64,000 nt of DNA from contig JBCCST010000010.1 in NCBI GenBank assembly GCA_039199695.1, forward strand, positions 16,635 to 80,634. The letters are read 5' to 3'. This document shows positions 1,632 through 17,160 of the stretch, in pieces. Position 1 is the stretch's first letter. Every line of letters starts with the position of its first letter. Source of the DNA: Planctomycetota bacterium. Lineage in GTDB: Bacteria; Planctomycetota; Phycisphaerae; Phycisphaerales; Phycisphaeraceae. Under the pieces are notes generated by a model. That model saw only the letters and a program-made list of their open reading frames with translations, made no database searches and was not told where the DNA came from. A program made the translations under genes and the position numbers.

Positions 1632-2297
1632 TTAATCGCCGTCATTATCAAGCCGCGACATCCGGCCGAGGTACACGCGGTTGGGGTCGACCGAGCCTTT
1701 GAAACCCTCGGCGTTGTTGAAATATTCGGTGTGGACGCCGATGCCGTCGGTGGCGGTTTGGGTGCTCCAGTAGCGGATGCCGACGCGGTTGCCCTCGTCG
1801 TCGGTTTCCCACGCCAGGAAGATGACGCTGTGGCCGGACTTGCCGCGCCAAAACTGAAGGAAGTCGCCCGCCTGAGCGTCGTCGTGTTCCACCGCATAGC
1901 CGATGCCGAGTTGTTCCAAAGCGTAGACGCATTGGGTCTCGGCCGAGACTTCATTCGTGCCGTACCACTGGCGCTGGAAGGTTTTGATTTCTTCAAACGA
2001 TTTATCTCGGATCAGTCGGCTGCGTTTGGCGGCTTCCATGGCCACCGTGAACGTGATGCCCGAGCAGTAGGTGCCGTCGGCAGAGGTCTTCTTGAGGACG
2101 ACTTTCCCTTGGTGCCGGATGGTGTGCGGCACGCCGGTGCTTTCCCATTCGTAGCCGCCGCCGGTGGGCATGCGGTCGATGAGCTTGAGGACCATCGAAT
2201 TGACGGCGGCCTCGTCGGCGGCTGCCGGGGCGGCATTAATCGTCGCGGCCAAACAAAGAAGAACGCCGATTATCCATCGCCAAGGGCTGTTCTGCAT
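1632..2297 (-). CDS. Secreted NlpC/P60- or CHAP-like cysteine hydrolase, putative peptidoglycan endopeptidase
   Basis: ATG at 2297 with a GAGGAG RBS and a signal peptide (WIIGVLLCLAATINA-A). Cys motif GTYCSGITF and His motif GDFLQFW..SGHSVIF form a papain-like dyad. Confidence 0.6.
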   Translation of the reverse strand: MQNSPWRWIIGVLLCLAATINAAPAAADEAAVNSMVLKLIDRMPTGGGYEWESTGVPHTIRHQGKVVLKKTSADGTYCSGITFTVAMEAAKRSRLIRDKSFEEIKTFQRQWYGTNEVSAETQCVYALEQLGIGYAVEHDDAQAGDFLQFWRGKSGHSVIFLAWETDDEGNRVGIRYWSTQTATDGIGVHTEYFNNAEGFKGSVDPNRVYLGRMSRLDNDGD

Positions 2298-2421
2298 ATG
2301 GAACTCCTCGAGTAGTTGGAACAGATTGTAACCCGCTGGGTCGAGCTTCGGCCACGATTCAACCAACAATTTGGATTCGATGACTCTTCGCCAACCGCTA
2401 TCGCCCGCTAAACTATGGGCT

Positions 2422-3531
2422 ATGGCGATGGCTGAGTTGTTTGCCCGCACGATCGACCACTACCTCGAACCGATCCGGCCGTACCTGGCCGACTCGTCGG
2501 TGACCGAGGTGATGGTCAACGCGCCGGACGAGATATACGTCGAGCGCGACGGGCAACTCGTACTCACCGATGCTCGCTTCGACGACACCGAACGTTATGA
2601 AGCCGCCGTCAACAATATTCTGCAGTTCACCGGGAAATCGCTGGCCGACGAAGAAACCCTCGTCGACGCCCGGCTGCCGGACGGCTCACGCGTCCACGTG
2701 GCTAAGGCCCCTTGCGCGCGCCACGGCACCGTGATGAGCATCCGCAAGTTCAGCCGGATGATGCTCGATATCGATTGGCTAATCGAACTCGGCTCGCTGA
2801 CGACCCAAGCCCGCGACTTCTTGAAGGTCGCGGTGGTCGCCGAGCAAAACGTGCTCGTCGCCGGCGGCACGAGTTCGGGCAAGACCTCGCTGCTCAACGC
2901 GATGTCGGCGTTCATCCCGTCGGGCGAGCGCCTGGTCGTCATCGAAGACTCCGCTGAGCTGCAGCTCCAGAAAGACCACTTGGTGTCGTTGGAATCCAAA
3001 CCCGCCGACACGTTTGGCCGAGGCGCGATCGGCGTGCGCGACTTGTTCCGGTCTTCGCTCCGCCTCCGCCCCGACCGGATCATCATCGGCGAGGTCCGCG
3101 GCGGTGAAGCCCTCGACATGATCCAGGCCATGACGTCCGGCCACGGCGGGTCGATGGGCACGCTCCACGCCAACACCCCCGCCGACGCGCTCAACCGACT
3201 CGAAACCATGGCGCTCATGTCCAAAGTCGAGCTGCCGCTGCACGCGCTGCGTAGCCAAGTCAGTTCGGCGATCGACTTGGTCGTACAGATGTCCCGACAG
3301 ATCGGCGGCCGGCGGCTGGTCACCCACATCAGCGAGGTCTTGCCTCTGGGCGACCATAACTATTACCAACTCCGCGATATCTTCACGATGAAACAAGTCG
3401 ACGACGATGACGGAGGTAAGGCCATGTGGCTGACCTGGACCGGCCAAGAATCCGTGCTGGCCGGGCGACTTGATGCCGATCAACAAGCGGCCGCATCTCC
3501 GGCGGTTCGCGCGATCTTTGGTCTGGATTGA
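2422..3531 (+). CDS. cpaF: Tad pilus assembly ATPase CpaF/TadA, short copy 1
   Basis: Walker A GGTSSGKT, Asp box VIEDSAELQL, Walker B PDRIIIGEVRG and His box GHGGSMGTLHAN. Confidence 0.9.
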   Translation: MAMAELFARTIDHYLEPIRPYLADSSVTEVMVNAPDEIYVERDGQLVLTDARFDDTERYEAAVNNILQFTGKSLADEETLVDARLPDGSRVHVAKAPCARHGTVMSIRKFSRMMLDIDWLIELGSLTTQARDFLKVAVVAEQNVLVAGGTSSGKTSLLNAMSAFIPSGERLVVIEDSAELQLQKDHLVSLESKPADTFGRGAIGVRDLFRSSLRLRPDRIIIGEVRGGEALDMIQAMTSGHGGSMGTLHANTPADALNRLETMALMSKVELPLHALRSQVSSAIDLVVQMSRQIGGRRLVTHISEVLPLGDHNYYQLRDIFTMKQVDDDDGGKAMWLTWTGQESVLAGRLDADQQAAASPAVRAIFGLD

Positions 3532-3559
3532 AGCTGCGGGTTCCGATAAGATGGAGAAT

Positions 3560-3805
3560 ATGGACGTTAGCCGTTTGTCCGCCGAGCCACCAACCGACTC
3601 ATGCAAACACCGTATTTCGCGTATTTTACGGCGTTTTCGTCGAAAATGGCGTCGAGACGGTGAGCGCGGAGCTACCCTGTTGGAGTGGCTATTGCTGCTC
3701 GCGGCCGTCGCCCTGCCGAGTTACTTTATAATTCAGGTTGGCTTAGCGACGCTTTTTGCCCACTACCGTCTGGTCACCACAATCAACGGCCTGCCGCTGC
3801 CGTGA
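3560..3805 (+). CDS. Flp/TadE-like prepilin
   Basis: Basic leader followed by ERG^ATLLEW (Glu at +5) and a hydrophobic helix. GGAG RBS before ATG 3560. Confidence 0.65.
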   Translation: MDVSRLSAEPPTDSCKHRISRILRRFRRKWRRDGERGATLLEWLLLLAAVALPSYFIIQVGLATLFAHYRLVTTINGLPLP

Positions 3806-3911
3806 CCCGTACGGGCTTACGCTCCACCCAACCACCCCGGCCTTTGAACCGGCCGACGCCCCACTACACGGGGCAATTCCCCACCGCCCCTTCGCCTCCG
3901 AGGCCTTTGTC

Positions 3912-4151
3912 ATGAAGAAGAAGACCCTGACTCTGATTCGAACATCTCGGCGCATCCTAAAGACGCTCCATCGCGACGAACGCGGGGCCGAGGGCCTCGA
4001 GAAGCTTCTGATCGTGGCCGCCATCGTCTTGCCGCTGCTCGGGCTACTCATCCTCTTCCGCCAGTCGTTGGGTGACTGGGTCGTGGGTGAATGGGATGAC
4101 GTCCGAGACTCGGCCGAGGGTGACCTGCCCGGCCCGTCCAACACGCCGTGA
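3912..4151 (+). CDS. Flp-type (type IVc) pilin
   Basis: 79 aa: basic leader, RDERG^AEGLEK (Glu at +5), hydrophobic segment and short acidic tail. Confidence 0.75.
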   Translation: MKKKTLTLIRTSRRILKTLHRDERGAEGLEKLLIVAAIVLPLLGLLILFRQSLGDWVVGEWDDVRDSAEGDLPGPSNTP

Positions 4152-4210
4152 CCACCGGATCGATTGAGCATGAGCATCACGGCAGATATTTCCGACGCGG
4201 GTGATGATTC

Positions 4211-4783
4211 TTGACCGCGACCCCGTGGATCATGTACGTCCTGCTGATCGGGGTGGTCATCGTAGCCGCGGTGACGGATCTCCGGACAACCTTGGTACCC
4301 AATCGGCTGACCTACCCCGCGATTCTCGCCGGGTTGATTATTTGGCCCGTGGCCGGGTTTATCGTCAAAGACGGAGGCTTGGCGATCGAATGGGGCCAAG
4401 CGTCTTGGCTCGGCATGCTCAGCGGGCTGATTCCCTTTGCGTTGTTGGTGATGACCGCCGGGCTGGGCGGGGGCGACATGAAACTCATGGCCGCGGTCGG
4501 GGCGTTGTCCGCCTCGTGGGAGGTGGTCCTGAGCACGACGATTTACGCGCTGGTCGTCTCTGTGTTCATGGCGGTGTTTGTCATGATCCGCAAAGGCGTG
4601 GTGAAGCAGACCCTCAGCCGAGTGTTTTCGGCGGCGCTCCTGGCCTCGGCTCGGGTGAAAACCGACCTGCCCAAAGACAGCCCGACGGTCGCGTTCGCCG
4701 CGGCGGTGGCGGTCGGCGCCGTCGTGGCCGGGGCCGAGCAAATGGTCGGCTGGGACTCGCCGTGGCGTGCATTCAGCCCGTAG
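4211..4783 (+). CDS. cpaA: Prepilin peptidase CpaA/TadV (A24 family, no methylase domain)
   Basis: Catalytic Asp motifs AVTDLRTTLVPN and GLGGGDMKL, with multiple TM helices. Confidence 0.85.
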   Translation: MTATPWIMYVLLIGVVIVAAVTDLRTTLVPNRLTYPAILAGLIIWPVAGFIVKDGGLAIEWGQASWLGMLSGLIPFALLVMTAGLGGGDMKLMAAVGALSASWEVVLSTTIYALVVSVFMAVFVMIRKGVVKQTLSRVFSAALLASARVKTDLPKDSPTVAFAAAVAVGAVVAGAEQMVGWDSPWRAFSP

Positions 4784-4856
4784 GCCGGACCGCCGGCTTG
4801 CCTAAAACCCCAATGTGCAATAGCCCGCACGATTTACGCGTTTTGCGGGTAAAATA

Positions 4857-7421
4857 ATGGACCCCATGCCCGACCCCGAAACCCCCGGCCCCGCCAACTC
4901 CGCCGTCACGACCTTGAGCCTCAAACCGGGCGATCAAGTCGATGCTTTTACCATCGTCGACACCATCGCGACGACCGGCTCGGCCGTGGTTTTCAAAGCC
5001 CACGACGCCTTGCTCGATCGCCACGTCGCGATCAAACAGATCATCCTCGGCCATGAAGATTCCGACGAAGCCCTGCGCAAACGCATCCGCGACGAAGCCG
5101 CGATCCACAAACGCGTTTCGACGTCGCAACCCAAACACCTGATCCAATTCATCGACGCCGTGGACGACCCGCGGGGGCTGATGCTCGTCGGCGAGTATTA
5201 CCCGTCGACCTCGCTCGAAGACCTCTTGGCCAAGACCACCGCCCCGCTCGACGAACGCCAAGCGCTCGGCATCGTCGCAGCCACCGCCAAGGGCCTCGAA
5301 GCGATCCACGGCGCGGGCGTGGTCCACCGCGACCTCAAGCCGAGCAACATCCTGCTCGGCGAGGACGGCGGGCTGAAGATCTGCGACTTCGGCCTCTCGG
5401 CGTTGATCGAGTCGCAAGACTCGCTCTCGCTCGGCTCGGTCCGCTACATGGCCCCCGAGTTGCTCAAATCCGAGACCGCCGACGGACGCGCCGACCTCTA
5501 CTCGCTGGGCATCATCGCCTACGAGATGCTCGCGGGGCGAGCGAACTTCGACGTGGCTTTCCGCAATGTGTTGCGTGACCAGCGCAACCAGGCGATGCGT
5601 TGGATGAAGTGGCACACCAACCTCCGCGTGTCCGCGCCGCTGCTCGACGACTACCTGCCCGATCTGCCGCCCCACCTGGTGCAACTCGTGGCCCGGATGA
5701 TGGACAAGGACCAGGCCCGCCGCGTCGGCACCGCGGAGGACGTGATCGACGCCATCCGCCGACACTTCACCGGCGACGGCCCGGATACCGATCTGTCTCC
5801 GCGACGCAGCATCGACCACCCCGGCATGGGTCCCGCCACCACCAGCACCCCGGGCGACACCACGGAGTTGCCGAGCACGAGCAAACTCCCGCTGATGCTG
5901 GGGGGCTTCCTGCTGTTCTGGGTGGTAGTCTTCGGCGTGCTTTTCGTGATCAACGATCAGAAGAAAAAATCCGCCTACAACCAAAAACTGGCCGACGCCA
6001 ACGCCTTGATCGACGAGGGCATTGATCGCTACGACGAAGGCGATTACAACGGGTCCCTCGAAAACTACCAAGCCGTGCTCGCGGTTTGGCCCGAAGAGAG
6101 CGAAGTCGCCCGGAATGCCCAACTCGGCGTCTGGAAAGCCCAGGGCCGTATCGCGTTTGCTGAGGCCCGATACGACGATGCGGTTGCCTTTTTCGAGCAA
6201 TACAAAGACGGGGGTGGCAGTGCGGTGACCGTCGATACCCTGATCCTCGAAGCAAAAGACAACGAGGCTTTTGCCCAGATCGATCAGACGGTGCTCGAAG
6301 CGATCGAAACGGGCGAGTTCACCGAAGCGCAACAAACCGTCAAAGAAGCCCGCGAACAAAACTGGACCGACGGCCAAGTCGCTCGACTGGACGAACTCGA
6401 CACGCTTATCGACGAACGCCGAGCCGAGGTACTGGCCGCCGAGCGCATCGCCGAGGCCCGGCGTCTGGTGGAGGCCGGCGACCGCCCCGCGGCCATCGAA
6501 GTTTTAGAAGATTTGGCCGGGTTGCCCGAAGAAGGCCAGACACTCCTGACCGAGTTACGGGCGGACGTGGCCTACGACAACGCGATCGCGGAAGGCGAAG
6601 AAGCCCTCCGCACCGGCCGACTCGGCGAAGCGGTAGACGCGTGGCGGGCGGCCTTGGCCCTCCGCCCCGACGAAGCACTCGAATCCCGGATCGCCCGCGT
6701 CGAGGCCCGCCGCCTGGTCGCGGAAGCCGCCAAGCTGTTCGACAACGGCGAGTTTGACGCCGCCGAAATCCGCATCGCCGCGGCGCTCGACCAAGACCCC
6801 GAAAACGTCGACGCGCTGCGTCTGCAGCAGCAGATCGCGGTCAAGACCGAGCTCGCCATCATCGAACGGCGAGGCGACGCGGCCCTGGCCGCCGGTAACC
6901 TGAGCGGCGCGATCACCGCTTATGAAGAAGGCCTGGGACTGGCCCCGGATTACCAGGCGCTGGTCCAAAAGCTCAACCGCGTGCGGGTACGCCAAAATCT
7001 CGATAGCGCCCGTGCCGCGATCAACGACGGCAAACTCGATCAGGCCGACGCTTTCCTGAAAGACGCCCAACTCATCGACCCGGACAACACCGACGTGGCC
7101 GAACTGTTGGCCACCCTCGATACGCAGCGCCGCTACCGGGACCTGATCACTCAGGCCGCCGAGGCCCGCGCCATCCCCGATTTCGGCCGGGCCAAGCGCC
7201 TCTACCGCGAGGCCAAAGAACTCGTGCCCGGCGACGAGATCGACAAGCTGATCGAACAACTCGACTTCGACAACTTCCTCGCTCAGGCCCGCGCTTTGAT
7301 CGCCAAGGGCGAACTCGCCGCCGCCCGGGGCATGTTGCAACAGGCCCGCCGCATCGACTTCACCCCCGAACTTGCCAAGCTCCTCGAAGAAGCCGAGGGC
7401 ACCCCGCCGGCCAGCAAGTAA
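4857..7421 (+). CDS. Transmembrane Hanks-type Ser/Thr protein kinase with C-terminal TPR-like repeats
   Basis: Motifs VAIK, HRDLKPSNILL, DFG, YMAPE and DLYSLG, then a single TM (LMLGGFLLFWVVVFGVLFVI) and about 480 aa of TPR-like helical repeats. Confidence 0.9.
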   Translation: MDPMPDPETPGPANSAVTTLSLKPGDQVDAFTIVDTIATTGSAVVFKAHDALLDRHVAIKQIILGHEDSDEALRKRIRDEAAIHKRVSTSQPKHLIQFIDAVDDPRGLMLVGEYYPSTSLEDLLAKTTAPLDERQALGIVAATAKGLEAIHGAGVVHRDLKPSNILLGEDGGLKICDFGLSALIESQDSLSLGSVRYMAPELLKSETADGRADLYSLGIIAYEMLAGRANFDVAFRNVLRDQRNQAMRWMKWHTNLRVSAPLLDDYLPDLPPHLVQLVARMMDKDQARRVGTAEDVIDAIRRHFTGDGPDTDLSPRRSIDHPGMGPATTSTPGDTTELPSTSKLPLMLGGFLLFWVVVFGVLFVINDQKKKSAYNQKLADANALIDEGIDRYDEGDYNGSLENYQAVLAVWPEESEVARNAQLGVWKAQGRIAFAEARYDDAVAFFEQYKDGGGSAVTVDTLILEAKDNEAFAQIDQTVLEAIETGEFTEAQQTVKEAREQNWTDGQVARLDELDTLIDERRAEVLAAERIAEARRLVEAGDRPAAIEVLEDLAGLPEEGQTLLTELRADVAYDNAIAEGEEALRTGRLGEAVDAWRAALALRPDEALESRIARVEARRLVAEAAKLFDNGEFDAAEIRIAAALDQDPENVDALRLQQQIAVKTELAIIERRGDAALAAGNLSGAITAYEEGLGLAPDYQALVQKLNRVRVRQNLDSARAAINDGKLDQADAFLKDAQLIDPDNTDVAELLATLDTQRRYRDLITQAAEARAIPDFGRAKRLYREAKELVPGDEIDKLIEQLDFDNFLAQARALIAKGELAAARGMLQQARRIDFTPELAKLLEEAEGTPPASK

Positions 7422-7506
7422 GTCCGCCCGCCGGCCACGCTCGGCCACACCACCCCACCGCCCCGGAATACACCCACTCCGGATTCGCGTACGGAACACC
7501 ATCCCC

Positions 7507-8340
7507 ATGAGTCAGATGCCCGGTTCTCCCACCGTCCCTTTGCCCAAAAAGCCCGGCCAGGCCGGCGCGACCACACCCGGTGCTCCCCCGGCCAGTCCGA
7601 AGCTCGTGGGTTTGGCGCTACTGATCGCGTTGATCGCGGTGGTGTTGGTCAACCTCTATATCCTTGGCGTCAAAAAGGCGGCCGAGGAAGGCGAGTACCG
7701 GTTCTTCCGGCTGGTGGTCGCCAAAGACGTGGGACAAACTTTGGAACTCGAAGACGTCCGCCTCGTCGGCGTCCCCGAAAGTTTCCGCGATGCGTTCCGT
7801 GACGTTGTCGAACCCAACAGCCAGGGCCAGCCCCTGCGGTTGGGCGATCCGTTTACCCGCCGGGCCGAGGCGGGCGAGCCGCTGACCACGCGCATGTTCG
7901 ACGACCTCACCGGCGACGCCTCCCGCCGGCTGATCACCGAAGGCTTCCGCGGCGTGTCGTTGCCGGTGGTGTCGAAGCTGCTCCCTGACCCGCTCAAGTC
8001 CGAAATGCGGGTGGACATCCTCGCCCCCGTCCGCACGACCGGCGGGCGGCAGGAAATCATGCCCGTGATGGAAAATGTCCGCGTGGTCAGCGTGGGCTCG
8101 CGCACGATCGTCGATGAACAATCCGGCGGCCGATCCGCGGGCAACTTCGAAACTCTCACGGTCGAAGTCCGCCCAGGTGAAGCGGTGCTGCTCGAAGAGA
8201 TCACGCAAGAAGTCCAGAAGACCGGCGTGTACCGTGTCCTGCTGCGTTCCCCGGATGATCAACGCCCGACTTTCATCCCCGAAGGCGGGCTCAATCCCGA
8301 TATCCTCGAACGCTACGGACTACAAGCCGCTTCGCGGTAG
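7507..8340 (+). CDS. cpaB: Flp pilus assembly protein CpaB/RcpC (SAF domain)
   Basis: N-terminal TM, SAF-like segment (VVAKDVGQTLELEDV) and CpaB-type segment (GFRGVSLPV..MRVDIL..VMENVRVVSVG..TLTVEV). Confidence 0.75.
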   Translation: MSQMPGSPTVPLPKKPGQAGATTPGAPPASPKLVGLALLIALIAVVLVNLYILGVKKAAEEGEYRFFRLVVAKDVGQTLELEDVRLVGVPESFRDAFRDVVEPNSQGQPLRLGDPFTRRAEAGEPLTTRMFDDLTGDASRRLITEGFRGVSLPVVSKLLPDPLKSEMRVDILAPVRTTGGRQEIMPVMENVRVVSVGSRTIVDEQSGGRSAGNFETLTVEVRPGEAVLLEEITQEVQKTGVYRVLLRSPDDQRPTFIPEGGLNPDILERYGLQAASR

Positions 8341-8355
8341 ACGCCGCTTCGCGGC

Positions 8356-8453
8356 AGTGATGAGTACTCAGTGAACAGTAATGAGTACGAGTCGCCGACT
8401 AATCCCGAAAACTTGTACCTTCACTCGTCACTATTCACTGTGCACTCATCACT
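8356..8453. repeat. Heptamer-unit inverted repeat element 1 (AGTGATG-type)
   Basis: Left arm AGTGATG AGTACTC AGTGAAC AGTAATG AGT. The reverse complement of the right arm (8423-8453) is AGTGATG AGTGCAC AGTGAAT AGTGACG AGT, matching at 26/31 positions. Confidence 0.85.
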
Positions 8454-8463
8454 CTGACTTGAA

Positions 8464-10329
8464 ATGCAATTCTGGCTCTACGACCACAGCAACAACCTCC
8501 GTCATACCCTCGAGGCCGAGGGCGACCCGATCAACATCGGGCGTGACGATGGCTGTGACATCGTGCTCAAGAGCGCCTTCGTCGCCCCGCGGCACGCCCG
8601 CATCTTGCGCAAGGGCAACCGCATGGTAGTCGAAGCGCTCAGTCAGGCCGGCACCCGCGTCGCCAACCGCGAGGTGCAAAAAGGCGCGCCGATGCTCGTG
8701 GACTTCGGCGACGAGATCCAGATCGGCCAGTTCACCATCGCCATCGTCGGCCGCAACGGCGAGGCCGTCGACACCCGCACCGCCGACGAAGATCGCCTGC
8801 AGGCCCGGCTGATGGAACTCGAACAAGAAGTCCACGCCGAGTTGCTCGAACGCATGAACCTCCGCGTCACGGGGAGCATCCGCAAGGACGACGACGCGTT
8901 CCTCAACCAAGTCCTCTTCCACCTCGACGAAGTGTTGGAGTCTCGCGTCAATGCGCTCGAGCCGGGCATGATCCGACTGGCCTGCATGCACCACCTGCAC
9001 CGCCTGGTCACCGCGGAGGTGGTGCGGCAATGCCAGGGCAAAGTCCAGACCGAATACAAGTCCGGCGACGACCGCCTGCTCAACGCCGCGTTTGAAACGC
9101 AGATCACCGAACTGGTCACGTCGTTGGTCGACATGATGCCGTTGCTGTTCGACCCGTCGAGCGTCAGCGAAGACCTCGCGGTGGCCGAGGACTCTTTCGA
9201 CGAGTTGTTCGAGAAGGAATACCCCACGCTCGACCGCGAGGTGACGCGGTACATCGTCCAACGCACCGTCGCCAAAGACATCCAGGACATCATGCTCGGC
9301 CTCGGCCCGCTGCAAGACCTCCTGGAGATGCCGTCGGTCAGCGAGATCATGGTCGTCGGCAAAGACCGCATCTACATCGAAAAGAACGGCATCATTCAGC
9401 CGACCACGCGAACGTTTTTCTCCGACGACGTGTTGCTGTCGATCATCGAACGCATCCTCGCGCCCGTCGGCCGACGCGTCGACACGTCAACACCGCTGGT
9501 CGACGCCCGCCTCGCCGACGGCAGCCGGGTCAACGTGGTGATCCACCCCTTGTCGCTGGTCGGGCCCTGCATGACCATCCGCAAGTTCGGCTGGGTGCCG
9601 TTCACCATGGACGACCTGGTCGAGCGCGGCGCGATGAGTTCCAACGTCGCGCGGTTCCTGCAGGGCTGCATCGTCGGCCGATCCAACATCGTCATCGCCG
9701 GCGGTACCGGCTCGGGCAAGACCACCCTGCTCAACGTCTTGGGCGCCTACGCCCGGCCCAACGAACGGATCATCACCGTCGAAGAGTCGGCCGAGCTCCA
9801 ACTTCCCCAACCCCACGTCGTCAAACTCGAAGGCCGACCCGCCAACATCGAAGGAAAGGGGGCGTACAGCATCCGCGAACTCGTCCGCAACAGCCTGCGG
9901 ATGCGCCCCGACCGCATCATCGTGGGCGAGGTCCGCGGCCCGGAGGCCATGGACATGCTCCAGGCCATGAACACCGGCCACGACGGCTCGCTCTCGACCG
10001 TCCACGCCAACAACCCCCACGACGCGATGAAACGACTCGAAGCGTTGGTACTCATGGCCGTGGAGATGCCCATGCGGGCGATCCGCGAACAGATCGTCAC
10101 CGCCGTCGACCTCGTGGTTCAGGTCACCCGTTTCGCCTCCGGCCACCGCCGTGTCACCGCGATCTCCGAAGTGACCTCCATCGACCCCGAGACCGGCACC
10201 ATCCGCCTCGAAGACATCTTCACCCTCAAAGACCCCAAGCAACCCACCCTCCGCCACACTGGCTACATCCCCACGTTCGCCGAAGAAATGGTCGAACGCG
10301 GCGACTTCGACGTGGACGTTTTTCTCTAA
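8464..10329 (+). CDS. cpaF: FHA-domain-fused CpaF/TadA ATPase, copy 2
   Basis: N-terminal FHA fold ([25 protein letters not shown]), Walker A GGTGSGKT, Walker [12 protein letters not shown] and His box [12 protein letters not shown]. Confidence 0.9.
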
Positions 10330-10332
10330 ACC

Positions 10333-11184
10333 ATGCACAACCCGCCGCTGTTCATCCTGCTCAACGTCTGCGTCTTTGCCGCCGCGTACCTGCTCGTGCG
10401 CCACGGCAAAGAACCCGCCGTACGTTTCCGAGAACGTCAGGAACTCGGCTACGACCGGGTGCTGCGTCGGCAGCTCATGATGGAGATCGAGCCCCGGCAG
10501 GCCTTCACGATGGCGATGTCGGGCATCGCGGTCGCGGTGGTTTTCGCGTTTCTCCTGACGTTTAACCTCTTCGTTGCGGTGGTGTGCGGCGCGATCGCGT
10601 ATTTCATCCCGACGGTCGTGGTGCGGCACCTCGAATTCAAGCGCCGCAAGCAGCTGGAATCGCAACTGATCGACGGGCTCACCACGATCTCGGCCGGGGT
10701 CAAGGCCGGGTTGAACCTCGTACAATCGATGGAGATGCTCGTCGACAACCAGACCGGGCCGATCAAACAGGAGTTTGCCCAACTCCTCCGCGAGTATCAG
10801 ATGGGTCGCGACCTCAACCAAGCGATGCAATCGGCGGCCAATCGGATCGGCTCACCGTTGTACCGCCTGACCTTCACCGCGATCGAAATGCACCGGCTGC
10901 GTGGCGGCGACACGGGTGAAAGCATGGACCGGCTCGCCGAGGCCGTCCGTGAAATCAAGAAACTCGAAGGCAAGCTCGACGCGATCACCGCGCAGAGCCG
11001 GTCGCAGGCCTCGATGATGGCGGTGATGCCGTTTGTGTTCATCTTCATCCTCTACATCATCGATCCCGCGGGGATTCAGCTGCTGTTTACCGAGACCATC
11101 GGTCGGGTGCTTCTGCTGATCGCCGCGGCCTTGATCCTCGGGGCGTTTCTGTGGATCCGGAAAATCATGGCGGTGGATATCTAA
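10333..11184 (+). CDS. tadB: Tad inner-membrane platform protein TadB
   Basis: T2SSF-like segments (QLIDGLTTISAGVKAGLNL..GPIKQEF..GGDTGESMDRL) and position directly after cpaF. Confidence 0.85.
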   Translation: MHNPPLFILLNVCVFAAAYLLVRHGKEPAVRFRERQELGYDRVLRRQLMMEIEPRQAFTMAMSGIAVAVVFAFLLTFNLFVAVVCGAIAYFIPTVVVRHLEFKRRKQLESQLIDGLTTISAGVKAGLNLVQSMEMLVDNQTGPIKQEFAQLLREYQMGRDLNQAMQSAANRIGSPLYRLTFTAIEMHRLRGGDTGESMDRLAEAVREIKKLEGKLDAITAQSRSQASMMAVMPFVFIFILYIIDPAGIQLLFTETIGRVLLLIAAALILGAFLWIRKIMAVDI

Positions 11185-11187
11185 GCG

Positions 11188-12087
11188 ATGAGCCTCGAGC
11201 AGTTGTTTATCTCGGCGATCGTGTTTGCGGGCGTGTTCCTACCGATCTACGCGATCTTCCGCTACCCGGTGCCCACCGCACCGCCGGTGAACCGGCGGAT
11301 CGCCCGGGCGATGGGGGCCGATCGCGCCACGATCTTTGAGCAGCCGCTGCTCGCGCCGATCCTCAACTTTATCGTCGCGATCGCCAGCCGATTGAACCTG
11401 CCCAAAGTCCGGGCCGACATCCGACAAGACCTCGACGCGTCCGGAAACGCATCCGGCTACAGCGTCGAGCAGTATCTGAGCCTATGCGTATTGTCGGGGT
11501 TGACCGTAGCGTTGCTCGCGGGCTTCGGCGAGTTGTGGCTGGGCGGCGGGCTGCTCCTGATCGTGTTGCCGCTGGGGGCGGCGGGCGGGTTTTATGTGCC
11601 GTTGATCCTGCTGCACGGCGCACGCAACCGCCGGGTGATCCGTATTGCCAAGCAGTTGCCCTACACCCTTGATCTGATCGCGTTGGTGATGGCCGCTGGC
11701 TCGAGCTTCGGCGAAGCGGTCCAGACGCTGATCCGCGACAACCCCGAAGACGAACTCAACCAGGAACTCAAGATCGCGTTGTCGGAGATCGAGTACGGCT
11801 CGACCCGGGCGGCGGCGCTCAAAAACCTGGGCACGCGCATCCCGCTCGAAAGTCTCCGTAGCGTTATCGCCTCGGTCAACCAAAGCGAGAAGCTCGGCAC
11901 GCCCATGGCCGCCGTCCTCAAAGTCCAGGCCGACATGCTGCGGGCGCATCGCGGCGTGATCGCCGAGAAAAAATCCGCCTCGGCCAGCCTGCGCATCCTC
12001 GTGCCGTCGATGATGATTATGATTTCGGTGGTGGTCATCGTGTTCGCGCCGATGATCATCCGCTACATCAAAGGCGACTTGTTTTGA
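11188..12087 (+). CDS. tadC: Tad inner-membrane platform protein TadC
   Basis: QLPYTLDLIALVMAAGSSFGEA..EIEYG..EKLGTPMAAVL motifs typical of TadC. Confidence 0.85.
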   Translation: MSLEQLFISAIVFAGVFLPIYAIFRYPVPTAPPVNRRIARAMGADRATIFEQPLLAPILNFIVAIASRLNLPKVRADIRQDLDASGNASGYSVEQYLSLCVLSGLTVALLAGFGELWLGGGLLLIVLPLGAAGGFYVPLILLHGARNRRVIRIAKQLPYTLDLIALVMAAGSSFGEAVQTLIRDNPEDELNQELKIALSEIEYGSTRAAALKNLGTRIPLESLRSVIASVNQSEKLGTPMAAVLKVQADMLRAHRGVIAEKKSASASLRILVPSMMIMISVVVIVFAPMIIRYIKGDLF

Positions 12088-13061
12088 ATGCTCAACTCCT
12101 CGAAGTCACGATCACCGCCGGGCCGAGCGCCGGCCAGCGGATGCGGGTGAACCAGTCGCCGGCCAGCTTCGGCCGCGGGATGGACAACCCGCTGGTCATC
12201 GATCTGGCGACCGTGTCGCGGGTGCACGGCGAGCTGCGCTTTAAGGACGACCGCTGGGTGGTCGCCAACCTCTCCAAAAACGGCACGAAGCTTAACCACC
12301 GCTCAGTCGGCCGTAAGCCGCGGCCGCTGCGCGACGGCGACCACATCGTCGTCGGGAATCAACCCGTGATGTCGGTCGTGCTGCGCGAAGGCAACGGCGA
12401 GGGGCCAACGATCACGGAGGCCGCTGACGCGGCAGCAAATGACGTCGGCACCGCCAACGCGGCCCCGCCCCGGGCGGGGATGAGCCCACGGACCAAGCTG
12501 TGGCTGGCGATCATCGGGTTCTGGGTGGTGGTGTTCGGCGCGGCGTTTTTTGTGTCCAGCGGGGCCGACAACGGCGAGGCTCGGACCGGACCGGGCATTC
12601 CCATGTTGACCGACCGTCAGATCGCCGAAGCCATCCGGGCCCAACTTCCGGATCAGGAAGCCTCACCGCGCACGGCCGCGCAACACTTTGACGAGGCCGA
12701 GGCGTACTACGGCCTGATCAACGCCGACCCGCAAAACGCCTTCCGCGCGCTCTACGCCTACAAAACCGCCTTGTCCTACGCCTACGGCGATCGTTTCACC
12801 GACGACCGCGACGACTGGGGCGGTAAACCGGCGGCCGATCTCGCCATCGCTCAGAAACGCTACGGCGAACTCGAAGCCCAGCTGATCGCTGACGTCCAAC
12901 GTCTCTACAAAGATGCCCACGGCAAACTTATGGACCGGCGCTACAGCGAGGCTAGACTAGGGTTTGATAAAGTCTTTCGTCTATACAACGACCCGCAGAG
13001 CCCAATCTACCGCAACGCCCTGAAACAACGCGACCTCGCCCGGCAACGCCAAGACAACTGA
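12084..13061 (+). CDS. FHA domain-TM-helical (TPR-like) protein
   Basis: Canonical FHA residues (FGR, VSRVH, SKNGT), one TM ([19 protein letters not shown]) and a helical C-terminus. The TTG start overlaps the tadC stop. Confidence 0.85.
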
Positions 13062-15423: not shown

Positions 15424-17160
15424 TCAAGCCGAGCGCGGACGACGCAGCATCACCAAGCCACCCAGTGCGATAAGGCCCGCCGTGGCGGGCTCGGGGATGA
15501 ACGTCACGGCGGCTTGTCCGGGCAGCGTGTTGCCGAAGTTGTCGGCCCACACGGTGTAGTCCGCCGCGTCGATCACGCCGTTGCCGTTGCCGTCGGCTTC
15601 CAAGTCGACCATCGAGCCGAAGTTGTCGGCCCACACGGTGTAGTCCGCCGCGTTGACCTCGCCGTCGCCGTTGTAATCGCCCAGGAGGACGGAAGGCCAA
15701 TCGAGTTCCATCGTGAAGAATGCGCGGTTGGTCCCGCCGGTGACGTTGGTGCGTGCCTGTAAAGCGAGGGTCGCCGATTCGTTGGCGTCGCGGTCGGACA
15801 ACGCGATTCCGCCGGTTAGGTCGAAGAGGCTTCCGTTGTCGGTTGAGTCTCCGGGGGCGAGCACGGTGTTGCCGTTGACGATGATCGACTCGTCATAGAT
15901 GAACGCGACATCGCCCTGATTGTTGATGGTCACGCTCGTAATGGACTCGCTGGGCGAGAGGTTGCGAAATACTTCTTGCCCATTGATCAGCAGCAACTCG
16001 GAGTAGTCTGGGTCATCACCGTCGTTCTGGAATTCGGGGTTGCCGATTTCGATCACCACCGCGTAGTCGCCCGAGTCGTTGACATCAAAACTCCCGAGAT
16101 CGCGGATCCTGACCGGGTCACCCCCGCCCCCGACTTCGTTGGCGTAAACCTCGTCGTCTTGGATGAGCGTGCCCGCGGACGTGGTTAGGAAAGAATTGTT
16201 AAGCACCAGCCCTCTAGTGATCCCGTTAGGCTCGGCTACACTCGGATCAGGGTCGAGGTTGATCTGGATGTTGATATTGGGGTCGACGTCCACTTCCGTG
16301 ATGTAGTTCGAGCCGGAATCGGAGACCCGTACCGCGCCCAACGGCTGAATATCCAAATCACTGGAACCTGAGGGCTGGATCTCGGCTGGCCCCAGCACCA
16401 AATCCGAACCGATGGGGTTGGTCAGTGTGTCTCCCGACTTCAACAGGGTGCTGTAGTCACCGGTTTGGCTGTCGTAGCGGAAGATCGCCTGATCGATCAC
16501 GGCACCGGTCCGCCCGTCGAGCGGCGATCCCGGGGCCGAACCGGTGAGCGTCTCGCTGGTGGTAAACGTCCCGAGAAAGAACACGTCGCCATCCTCGGCG
16601 ATATCAACGAAACGTAAGCCGGACGTGCCGTCGTCGAACTGGGCTCCCGTGTTCACCCCGGCCGAGAGCGGGACCGCGGTGCTCTCGGCGACCAGCAGGG
16701 TGTCATCGAGGAAGATACCGTCGGGTTCAAACTGAGCCCCCGTCGAGAGCTTTGCGCTGTAGCCCAGTTGACCGGCGGCGTTCAAACGCCCCGAGCCCAA
16801 CGCGGTCGTCGTGGTGGTGCCGGTGCCCTCGGCCAGCACGACCCCCGGGCTGGCGGGGTCGCCGCCGTAAAAACGGTCGGTGCGGACCGTTTCAAAATTC
16901 GTGAAATCGAAGAAAGTCGTGCTTGCCCGGGCCACCACCTGTCCGTCGGATGAGATCGACGGCGTACCTGCCAACGATGAAACACTGGCCTCGGGGAACG
17001 AATCATCGTCGCCGATCAAACGGATCGGCGTCGTTGACGAATCGGGGCCGGGGTTTAAGTACTGGGCACCAGCCGATCCAGCCAAGATATATCCGACTGC
17101 TGCCGCGACTAAACACAAAGCTGCCGAGTGCCGACACTTTAAGAAGTTAAAACCAACCAT
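15424..17160 (-). CDS. Secreted protein with a planctomycete-type dockerin-like duplicated motif and a PEP-CTERM sorting signal
   Basis: Signal peptide, GDYNGDGEVNAADYTVWADNFG repeated as GNGNGVIDAADYTVWADNFG, and C-terminal IPEPATAGLIALGGLVMLRRPRSA. Confidence 0.85.
   Translation of the reverse strand: MVGFNFLKCRHSAALCLVAAAVGYILAGSAGAQYLNPGPDSSTTPIRLIGDDDSFPEASVSSLAGTPSISSDGQVVARASTTFFDFTNFETVRTDRFYGGDPASPGVVLAEGTGTTTTTALGSGRLNAAGQLGYSAKLSTGAQFEPDGIFLDDTLLVAESTAVPLSAGVNTGAQFDDGTSGLRFVDIAEDGDVFFLGTFTTSETLTGSAPGSPLDGRTGAVIDQAIFRYDSQTGDYSTLLKSGDTLTNPIGSDLVLGPAEIQPSGSSDLDIQPLGAVRVSDSGSNYITEVDVDPNINIQINLDPDPSVAEPNGITRGLVLNNSFLTTSAGTLIQDDEVYANEVGGGGDPVRIRDLGSFDVNDSGDYAVVIEIGNPEFQNDGDDPDYSELLLINGQEVFRNLSPSESITSVTINNQGDVAFIYDESIIVNGNTVLAPGDSTDNGSLFDLTGGIALSDRDANESATLALQARTNVTGGTNRAFFTMELDWPSVLLGDYNGDGEVNAADYTVWADNFGSMVDLEADGNGNGVIDAADYTVWADNFGNTLPGQAAVTFIPEPATAGLIALGGLVMLRRPRSA

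Follow-up and report, generated by a model that had tools for sequence, protein, structure and literature searches.

The 64,000-nucleotide stretch analyzed here (the window; positions 16,635 to 80,634 of contig JBCCST010000010.1, assembly GCA_039199695.1) originates from a marine planctomycete (Algisphaera) of the Phycisphaeraceae and contains, at positions 2422-13061, a gene row for a Tad-like pilus that encodes two ATPases of the CpaF family, a short one (CpaF1) and a long one with an N-terminal FHA domain (CpaF2). Current papers treat the Tad pilus as the model single-motor type IV filament, and they state that the way in which a single CpaF powers extension as well as retraction is still to be resolved (PMC12019362; PMC11300603). 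Both the Tad and the Kil systems have been described as single-ATPase systems (PMC8460266; PMC12019362; bioRxiv 10.64898/2026.07.08.737194). What is new at this locus is that one system pairs, in a conserved manner, a canonical FHA-CpaF and a member of a CpaF subfamily that lacks the three-helix bundle and the central-loop glutamate E331 (Caulobacter numbering).

The host genome comprises 3.65 Mb on 112 contigs, and the window belongs to an 88-kb contig (C10). The closest named relative is Algisphaera agarilytica (Phycisphaerae), whose CpaF1 and CpaF2 are 93% and 94% identical to the window copies. From cpaF1 to the gene for the FHA membrane protein all genes are on the plus strand with gaps of at most 123 bp, and trpB is the next gene after the locus (Table 1). 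Judged by its gene content, with Flp-type prepilins, an A24 peptidase, TadB and TadC, the locus is that of a Tad/Flp (type IVc)-like pilus. The peptidase, TadB and TadC each pass the Pfam cut-offs; flp1 has no Pfam match, and both Flp genes were assigned by motif reading alone. Both are conserved in relatives, as is the position of the FHA protein gene 3' of tadC. The kinase motifs HRDLKPSN, DFG and APE, read from the translation, are intact. The cpaB-like gene scores below the cut-offs of its two profiles (PF16976, 22.4 vs 28.8 bits; TIGR03177, 36.4 vs 71 bits). Terminator-like sites are not enriched (13 found vs 9.8±3.0 expected), so that terminators splitting the row were rejected and a single operon is plausible.

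Table 1. Features of the two-ATPase locus and the adjoining divergent gene (window coordinates)
Feature	Position	Strand	Description
Secreted protein, divergent from cpaF1	1632..2297	-	signal-peptide-like stretch after Met at 2297; open reading frame 1632-2450
cpaF1	2422..3531	+	369-aa short CpaF-family ATPase: N-terminal domain and ATPase domain only
flp1, small Flp-type prepilin	3548..3805	+	motif G/ATLLEW (Gly -1, Glu +5); 16 bp past the cpaF1 stop
flp2, second Flp-type prepilin	3912..4151	+	motif G/AEGLEK, then a hydrophobic helix
cpaA/tadV, prepilin peptidase, family A24	4211..4783	+	PF01478, E 1.2e-14
Membrane-anchored Hanks-type Ser/Thr kinase with extracytoplasmic TPR region	4857..7421	+	PF00069, E 3.8e-49, and TPR families
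cpaB/rcpC-like periplasmic protein, weak assignment	7507..8340	+	sub-cut-off profile scores; position kept in relatives
Long imperfect hairpin in the cpaB-cpaF2 spacer	8356..8453	+	ends 10 nt 5' of the cpaF2 ATG
cpaF2	8464..10329	+	621 aa: FHA (2-94), six-helix module (104-278), CpaF N-terminal domain and ATPase domain
tadB, platform protein with a single T2SSF domain	10333..11184	+	PF00482, E 5.7e-16
tadC, second platform protein	11188..12087	+	PF00482, E 3.8e-13
Membrane protein with N-terminal FHA domain	12084..13061	+	PF00498, E 2.4e-14; canonical GR, SRVH, NGT motifs

Open reading frames for TadZ/CpaE, TadD or TadE/F/G are absent from 2422-13061, the part of the genome that this search covered, and no secretin (PF00263) match occurs on the 88-kb contig. 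Three secretin genes are located elsewhere in the genome, two of which share their contig with a strong T2SSE (PF00437) ATPase match. The third (C27:11835-15128, minus strand) encodes a protein of 1098 aa with a long Ala/Glu-rich, TPR-like N-terminal half and has no T2SSE ATPase on its contig; this orphan secretin-domain protein is a candidate outer-membrane channel for the secretin-less locus. On its upstream side, cpaF1 is separated by a 124-bp promoter region from the divergent gene for a secreted protein, which has no Pfam or NCBIfam match. The hairpin preceding cpaF2 is very stable (minimum free energy -47.6 kcal/mol, z -6.2, with 0 of 200 shuffles as stable). A similar one is found at the same place in A. 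agarilytica (L011) but none in three further loci (L012, L022, L041), and in another genome (G011, L020) the site is occupied by a hairpin of a different kind. As it is not kept beyond the closest species, a role as conserved regulator was rejected, and the hairpin looks like a mobile repeat-type element.

Two CpaF-family ATPases of different architecture

The two ATPase genes are uninterrupted, belong to one same-strand row and carry every catalytic motif, so that the initial annotation, which had reported two intact CpaF copies in one locus, holds on this point. The open reading frame of cpaF1 spans 2371-3531, with the true start set by homologues at the ATG at 2422. CpaF1 matches PF00437 (E 2.9e-50) and contains Walker A GGTSSGKT, Asp box VIEDSAEL, Walker B IIIGEVRG and His box GHGGSMGTLHAN. 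In CpaF2, the Pfam matches are FHA (PF00498, residues 24-88) and T2SSE (280-561), with Walker A GGTGSGKT and Asp box TVEESAEL, the Caulobacter equivalent of the latter being TCEDAAEL. The motifs quoted earlier (GTSSGKT for copy 1, GTGSGKT and TVEESAE for copy 2) can all be read in the sequence. The Asp to Glu change in the Asp box of copy 2, which had also been pointed out, is real, but carries little weight because it is conservative and clade specific: 12 of the 21 long-form orthologues share it, whereas more distant ones keep ED. It was therefore rejected as a functional signal, and the Asp box is counted among the catalytic motifs carried by both proteins.

The cores of CpaF1 and CpaF2 are 43% identical over 340 aa (E 3e-91). 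The best solved relative of both is Caulobacter crescentus CpaF (phmmer E 4.5e-78 for CpaF1 and 4.8e-99 for CpaF2; PDB 8RKD, 8RJF, 9E24), which has the same catalytic motifs, and the top Foldseek match is likewise CpaF for both copies rather than FlaI, VirB11, PilB or PilT. The best NCBIfam model is TIGR03819, although with 272 bits (CpaF1) and 321 bits (CpaF2) both remain below its cut-off of 373, and only the general PF00437 was passed. Against the PilT model TIGR01420, CpaF1 reaches 51.6 bits with a cut-off of 319 (E 7.8e-14, vs 5.6e-81 for the CpaF type), and its TM-scores to PilT are lower. None of the 30 short and 21 long forms compared has lost Walker A, the Glu of Walker B, the His box, the central-loop GxG or the inter-chain Arg finger R347.

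CpaF1 aligns to Caulobacter CpaF from residue 149 onward, with about 14 residues ahead of that point, and its AlphaFold2 model (mean predicted local distance difference test score, pLDDT, 72.6) has just two short helices before the sheet of the N-terminal domain. In several relatives an upstream stop codon leaves no more than four residues before the position of CpaF1 Met1. The starting point of the alignment and these upstream stops indicate that the short form is genuine. An apparent FHA-CpaF1 fusion of 1050 aa in one genome (G028) was rejected as a chance open frame in GC-rich DNA, the real start being MDKHTIF. CpaF1 thus has no three-helix bundle, which together with the N-terminal domain and the ATPase domain makes up the minimum architecture in bacteria (PMC12019362), and compared with Caulobacter CpaF it also lacks the platform-contact residues. 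The hinge glycines G147 and G149, the Loop-8 D208 and the central-loop E331 are each present in 21 of 21 long forms, whereas among the 30 short forms G147 is retained in none, G149 in two, D208 in eight and E331 in none, the last being replaced by Tyr or Phe in 20 and by Phe in the window copy. Across 221 CpaF units, the signature D-E-G-G-R-E (208, 331, 332, 334, 347, 357) is near-universal outside the CpaF1-like clade. In Caulobacter, the mutations G147A/G149A, D208K and the E331-G334 quadruple replacement each abolished pilus extension (PMC11300603).

Maximum-likelihood trees separate the CpaF1-like set from all canonical CpaFs with 93-99% support, with uncertain rooting. In view of the loss of the hinge glycines, D208 and E331 in the short forms, CpaF1 is, as far as its sequence tells, a member of a separate deep CpaF subfamily and not a canonical CpaF. 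Since the motifs for catalysis are kept and the platform-coupling elements are changed, it is predicted to be an active ATPase that cannot engage TadB/TadC in the canonical way. The earlier description of copy 1 as a short core ATPase is thus right with regard to its length and its domains, but this is not merely a short core: it belongs to a deep subfamily with a remodeled platform-facing surface. Basal members of the CpaF1-like set still have FHA domains and long N-termini, which suggests that the short form arose by loss.

In the AlphaFold2 model of CpaF2 (pLDDT 71.7), an FHA sandwich (2-94) is followed by six helices (104-278) and by the N-terminal domain from residue 292. The helices have pLDDT values of mostly 75-89 and include many invariant residues, and the model aligns over 415-418 columns with a 423-aa CpaF structure, three-helix bundle included. 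The initial annotation had recognized the FHA domain and about 170 aa of helical linker, both of which are real. However, with its six predicted helices, invariant residues and equivalent of the three-helix bundle, the stretch 104-278 is, according to the model, a folded module and not a loose linker. CpaF2 thus has the three-helix bundle, N-terminal domain and ATPase domain of the published minimum architecture and keeps the equivalents of the hinge glycines, D208 and E331. The N-terminus that is disordered in Caulobacter CpaF is replaced in CpaF2 by the FHA domain and three additional helices.

In the FHA domain of CpaF2 (8464-8760), GR and the His are retained, but Ala takes the place of the Ser of the SxxH motif and the Asn-Gly motif is gone, a degenerate state that members of the Phycisphaerales-type clade have in common. 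The membrane protein encoded downstream, on the other hand, has an FHA domain (12084-12380) with the canonical GR, SRVH and NGT motifs and probably docks phosphothreonine.

Distribution of the long and short forms

In 41 related genomes, both ATPases were found in 19, CpaF1 only in three, which are all fragmented metagenome-assembled genomes (MAGs), CpaF2 only in none, and neither in the remaining 19. The complete gene order, both ATPases included, is shared by the genus, the family and one further family. An additional locus, divergent and complete, exists in one genome (G033; L015, on C2), once more with a short and a long ATPase. In another genome (G011, C10; L019/L020) cpaF1 has been relocated to a site 2 Mb from the other genes of the locus. 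In a survey of the phylum, which sampled 400 genomes followed by locus inspection, a short CpaF, an FHA-CpaF, TadB/TadC, an FHA protein and a Ser/Thr kinase recur in many planctomycete families in varying order. The cpaF1 gene tends to accompany flp and cpaA, and cpaF2 is located directly 5' of tadB-tadC in every lineage inspected.

A scan of one genome per species across prokaryotes, of which the best 80 of more than 600 matches were inspected and which is therefore no census, recovered the duo outside the phylum in Polyangiaceae, Polyangiales and Polyangia, in 'Deltaproteobacteria' MAGs, in Rhizobium lusitanum SEMIA 4060 and in a Sumerlaeota MAG. The searches were of the 'quick' type, and many of the genomes are MAGs. 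Outside Planctomycetota the usual order is long CpaF, tadB, tadC, short CpaF. In the trees, the short partners fall on the CpaF1 side and the long ones on the CpaF2 side. Judged from these sequences, the pair is old and widespread.

Some of these cases stand out individually. In R. lusitanum (L057, NZ_JACHBG010000011.1) the short CpaF, with Phe at position 331, is divergent from a cpaA...cpaB-FHA-cpaF-tadB-tadC row. Its long partner has N-E-S-T at positions 208/331/332/334 with changed central-loop glycines, and strain SEMIA 4060 possesses an additional, ordinary alphaproteobacterial CpaF elsewhere in the genome. A Hyalangium sp. MAG (G433, L051), a relative of Myxococcus, has exactly two CpaF-like genes, a long one that resembles KilF and, on another contig, a CpaF1-like one with Phe at 331. 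In the five-contig assembly of G001, the region L021 (C5:534000-552000) looks like uncorrected long-read indel error rather than decay: pseudogenization of cpaF1 in this genome was rejected, as every gene of the region including trpB is frameshifted, which points to assembly quality.

Both CpaF genes are, as judged from the substitution ratios, under purifying selection and as well conserved as trpB: the ratio of nonsynonymous to synonymous substitution rates (dN/dS) in comparison with three congeners is 0.06-0.10 for cpaF1, 0.10-0.13 for cpaF2 and 0.10-0.15 for trpB. Genome-wide, the T2SSE model gives about 20 matches, of which only the two in the window are CpaF-like. Single-domain T2SSF genes occur as one pair (tadB, tadC), and the T2SSF platform genes located on other contigs have the two-domain layout of PilC/GspF. 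Since the genome has one TadB/TadC pair, the two ATPases must share a single platform.

The idea that one of the copies is a redundant or decaying spare has a parallel in Bdellovibrio, in which the extra tadA2 paralogue is dispensable (bioRxiv 10.64898/2026.07.08.737194), but the two paralogues differ in more than half of their core residues and belong to different deep clades, neither dN/dS exceeds 0.13, the pair is kept across phyla, and the broken copies of G001 are accounted for by its assembly. The single platform pair, the co-occurrence with no genome having CpaF2 alone and the presence of the duo in several phyla make redundancy very unlikely. Co-occurrence, cross-phyla synteny, purifying selection acting on either gene and the presence of just one TadB/TadC pair strongly support the proposal made at the outset that the two are distinct, non-redundant motors of one system.

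Roles of the two ATPases on a single platform

The reading that is tentatively favored, although our confidence in it falls somewhat short of even, is that two non-redundant hexameric ATPases of the CpaF family alternate on the single TadB/TadC platform, with CpaF2 responsible for extension and CpaF1 for an opposite or auxiliary step. CpaF2, in which the three-helix bundle, the hinge glycines, the Loop-8 Asp and the central-loop Glu are kept, would be the canonical platform-engaging motor. Its FHA domain and helical module would tie it to the membrane Ser/Thr kinase and the FHA membrane protein of the putative operon, so that pilus assembly could be switched post-translationally by way of kinase and FHA. 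A kinase-FHA switch of this kind is known from the threonine phosphorylation pathway of the type VI secretion system. CpaF1 and CpaF2 would form separate hexamers taking turns on one platform, as PilB and PilT do on PilC, with CpaF2 driving a regulated, kinase-gated extension and CpaF1 driving the opposite or an auxiliary step, probably retraction. This reading is favored by the position of cpaF2, which adjoins tadB-tadC as pilB adjoins pilC, and by the minimal layout of CpaF1 with N-terminal domain and ATPase domain, which resembles PilT.

Several observations weigh against this assignment. The degenerate FHA domain of CpaF2 may not bind phosphothreonine at all; because the Ser of SxxH and the Asn-Gly motif are lost, the link between CpaF2 and the kinase may be indirect, for example through the membrane protein with the canonical FHA domain. 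The co-location of cpaF1 with the pilin and peptidase genes would also suit a role in assembly, and in Caulobacter it is the N-terminal region of CpaF that promotes retraction (PMC11300603). By sequence and fold CpaF1 is a CpaF and not a PilT, so that the PilT analogy is architectural only. In addition, Caulobacter CpaF truncated to residues 145-501, 147-501 or 149-501 showed no detectable expression (PMC12019362), and the natural length of CpaF1 matches these truncations. Confidence in the structure models is moderate (pLDDT about 72).

Instead of alternating as separate rings, CpaF1 and CpaF2 could, in line with the second of the two models of the initial annotation (the first being extension versus retraction), assemble into one mixed hexamer, for instance as an alternating 3+3 ring, in which only three subunits would have the arms formed by the three-helix bundle and FHA domain and the two types of subunit would face TadB/TadC differently. 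We consider this a serious but less likely arrangement, with perhaps one chance in a few. The strict co-inheritance and the inter-chain Arg finger R347, which is kept in both paralogues, are in line with it, and an alternating ring would fit published models in which six CpaF subunits sit above three CpaG and three CpaH (PMC11300603). However, cpaF1 can be 0.2-2 Mb away from cpaF2 (G011, G191) or, as in Hyalangium, on another contig. By analogy, natural polypeptides with two or three tandem CpaF units, found in Anaerolineae and Fimbriimonadaceae, also speak for a mixed ring. Their first unit has about 95 residues before the core, leaving room for a three-helix bundle, whereas later units have about 32-38 and none, and two of these proteins (P0126, P0128) also carry Phe at 331 in the later unit, which is the combination seen in CpaF1. 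According to the trees, though, the fusions are independent, lineage-specific duplications of units and not CpaF1-CpaF2 fusions, so that the argument is only one of analogy and a Rosetta-stone reading was rejected. The tandem proteins show that mixed assemblies are viable and do not demonstrate that CpaF1 and CpaF2 form one. Multi-CpaF polypeptides of this kind headed the matches of an exhaustive search. As a group, P0121-P0128 contain 2-4 CpaF units, with a three-unit protein on several Anaerolineae contigs and a two-unit protein from Fimbriimonadaceae. Later units are without the three-helix bundle in P0121, P0126 and P0128, and P0126 and P0128 converge on the CpaF1 pattern at E331.

It is also conceivable, though improbable, that CpaF1 has a different task in the same pathway and powers a pilin-linked step, such as the priming or extraction of one Flp or the export of a substrate, and not filament dynamics. 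The locus does have two Flp genes, cpaF1 stays together with flp and cpaA in a sub-module that is at times found apart from the platform genes (L030, L040, L045, G011), and the platform-contact residues of CpaF1 are not conserved. On the other hand, the genome offers CpaF1 no other TadB/TadC-like partner, the central-loop GxG and all motor motifs are kept, and in Polyangia the short gene is directly 3' of tadB-tadC.

Alternation of separate CpaF1 and CpaF2 hexamers on one platform can be extended beyond the window to the possibility, held with more reserve than the reading for this locus itself, that in a widespread and hitherto undescribed type of Tad-like pilus, present in Planctomycetota, Polyangia, some rhizobia and Sumerlaeota, the directions of filament movement are divided between two CpaF paralogues, one kinase/FHA-gated and canonical, the other a bundle-less form with an aromatic central loop.

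Relation to known systems and significance

In Caulobacter, a single bifunctional CpaF serves both directions, whereas the window locus has two ATPases. The type IVa systems with PilB and PilT (and PilU) likewise operate two paralogous hexameric ATPases on one platform, and the likeness extends to a long, regulated ATPase encoded beside the platform gene and a short one with core domains only. CpaF1 is, however, no PilT homologue in the narrow sense, and any split of roles would have arisen independently within the CpaF family. A precedent in archaea, two ATPases in the Methanococcus Epd pilus, was considered and dropped because according to the literature this pilus has a single ATPase (EpdL) and two platform proteins.

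The Tad-like Kil system of Myxococcus xanthus (PMC8460266) has KilF with an N-terminal FHA domain and further FHA proteins and is without TadD, TadG and RcpB. The window locus resembles it in its FHA proteins and in the lack of TadD, TadG and TadZ-type genes, and the long ATPases of Polyangia cluster with CpaF2 in the tree. In contrast to Kil, for which a single ATPase and its own secretin have been described, the window locus has a Hanks kinase and a short CpaF in addition, and its contig contains no secretin. The class III FHA-CpaF proteins, for example that of Achromobacter xylosoxidans (E3HIW0; PMC12019362), have the same order of FHA domain, spacer, three-helix bundle, N-terminal domain and ATPase domain. 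Their spacer is disordered and no partner ATPase has been described, whereas in CpaF2 the spacer is predicted to be helical and is conserved, with a short paralogue always alongside. Bdellovibrio bacteriovorus possesses several TadA paralogues (TadZA, TadA2, TadA3) with FHA and TPR regulators nearby (bioRxiv 10.64898/2026.07.08.737194), but these are encoded at separate loci and show no conserved pairing of a long with a short form.

FHA-fused CpaF proteins (class III, PMC12019362; KilF, PMC8460266) and genomes with several TadA paralogues are thus already known. A published two-CpaF Tad locus or work on planctomycete Tad systems was not found in a search that did not extend to most subscription journals, so that an earlier mention is possible. 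What the locus adds is a separate CpaF subfamily without the published minimum architecture, and a second motor whose differences fall precisely on the elements presumed to link CpaF with the platform. The Hyalangium MAG, with its KilF-like and CpaF1-like genes on different contigs, raises the question of whether an overlooked, unlinked second ATPase exists in myxobacterial Kil systems.

If the two paralogues do divide the directions of movement, the PilB/PilT solution would have been reinvented independently inside a lineage regarded as single-motor, and the hinge glycines, D208 and E331 would mark what sets the direction of a CpaF motor. A natural, conserved two-CpaF system amounts to a separation-of-function experiment already run by evolution, and the question is directly testable because cultured hosts of the duo exist in Algisphaera agarilytica and Rhizobium lusitanum SEMIA 4060.

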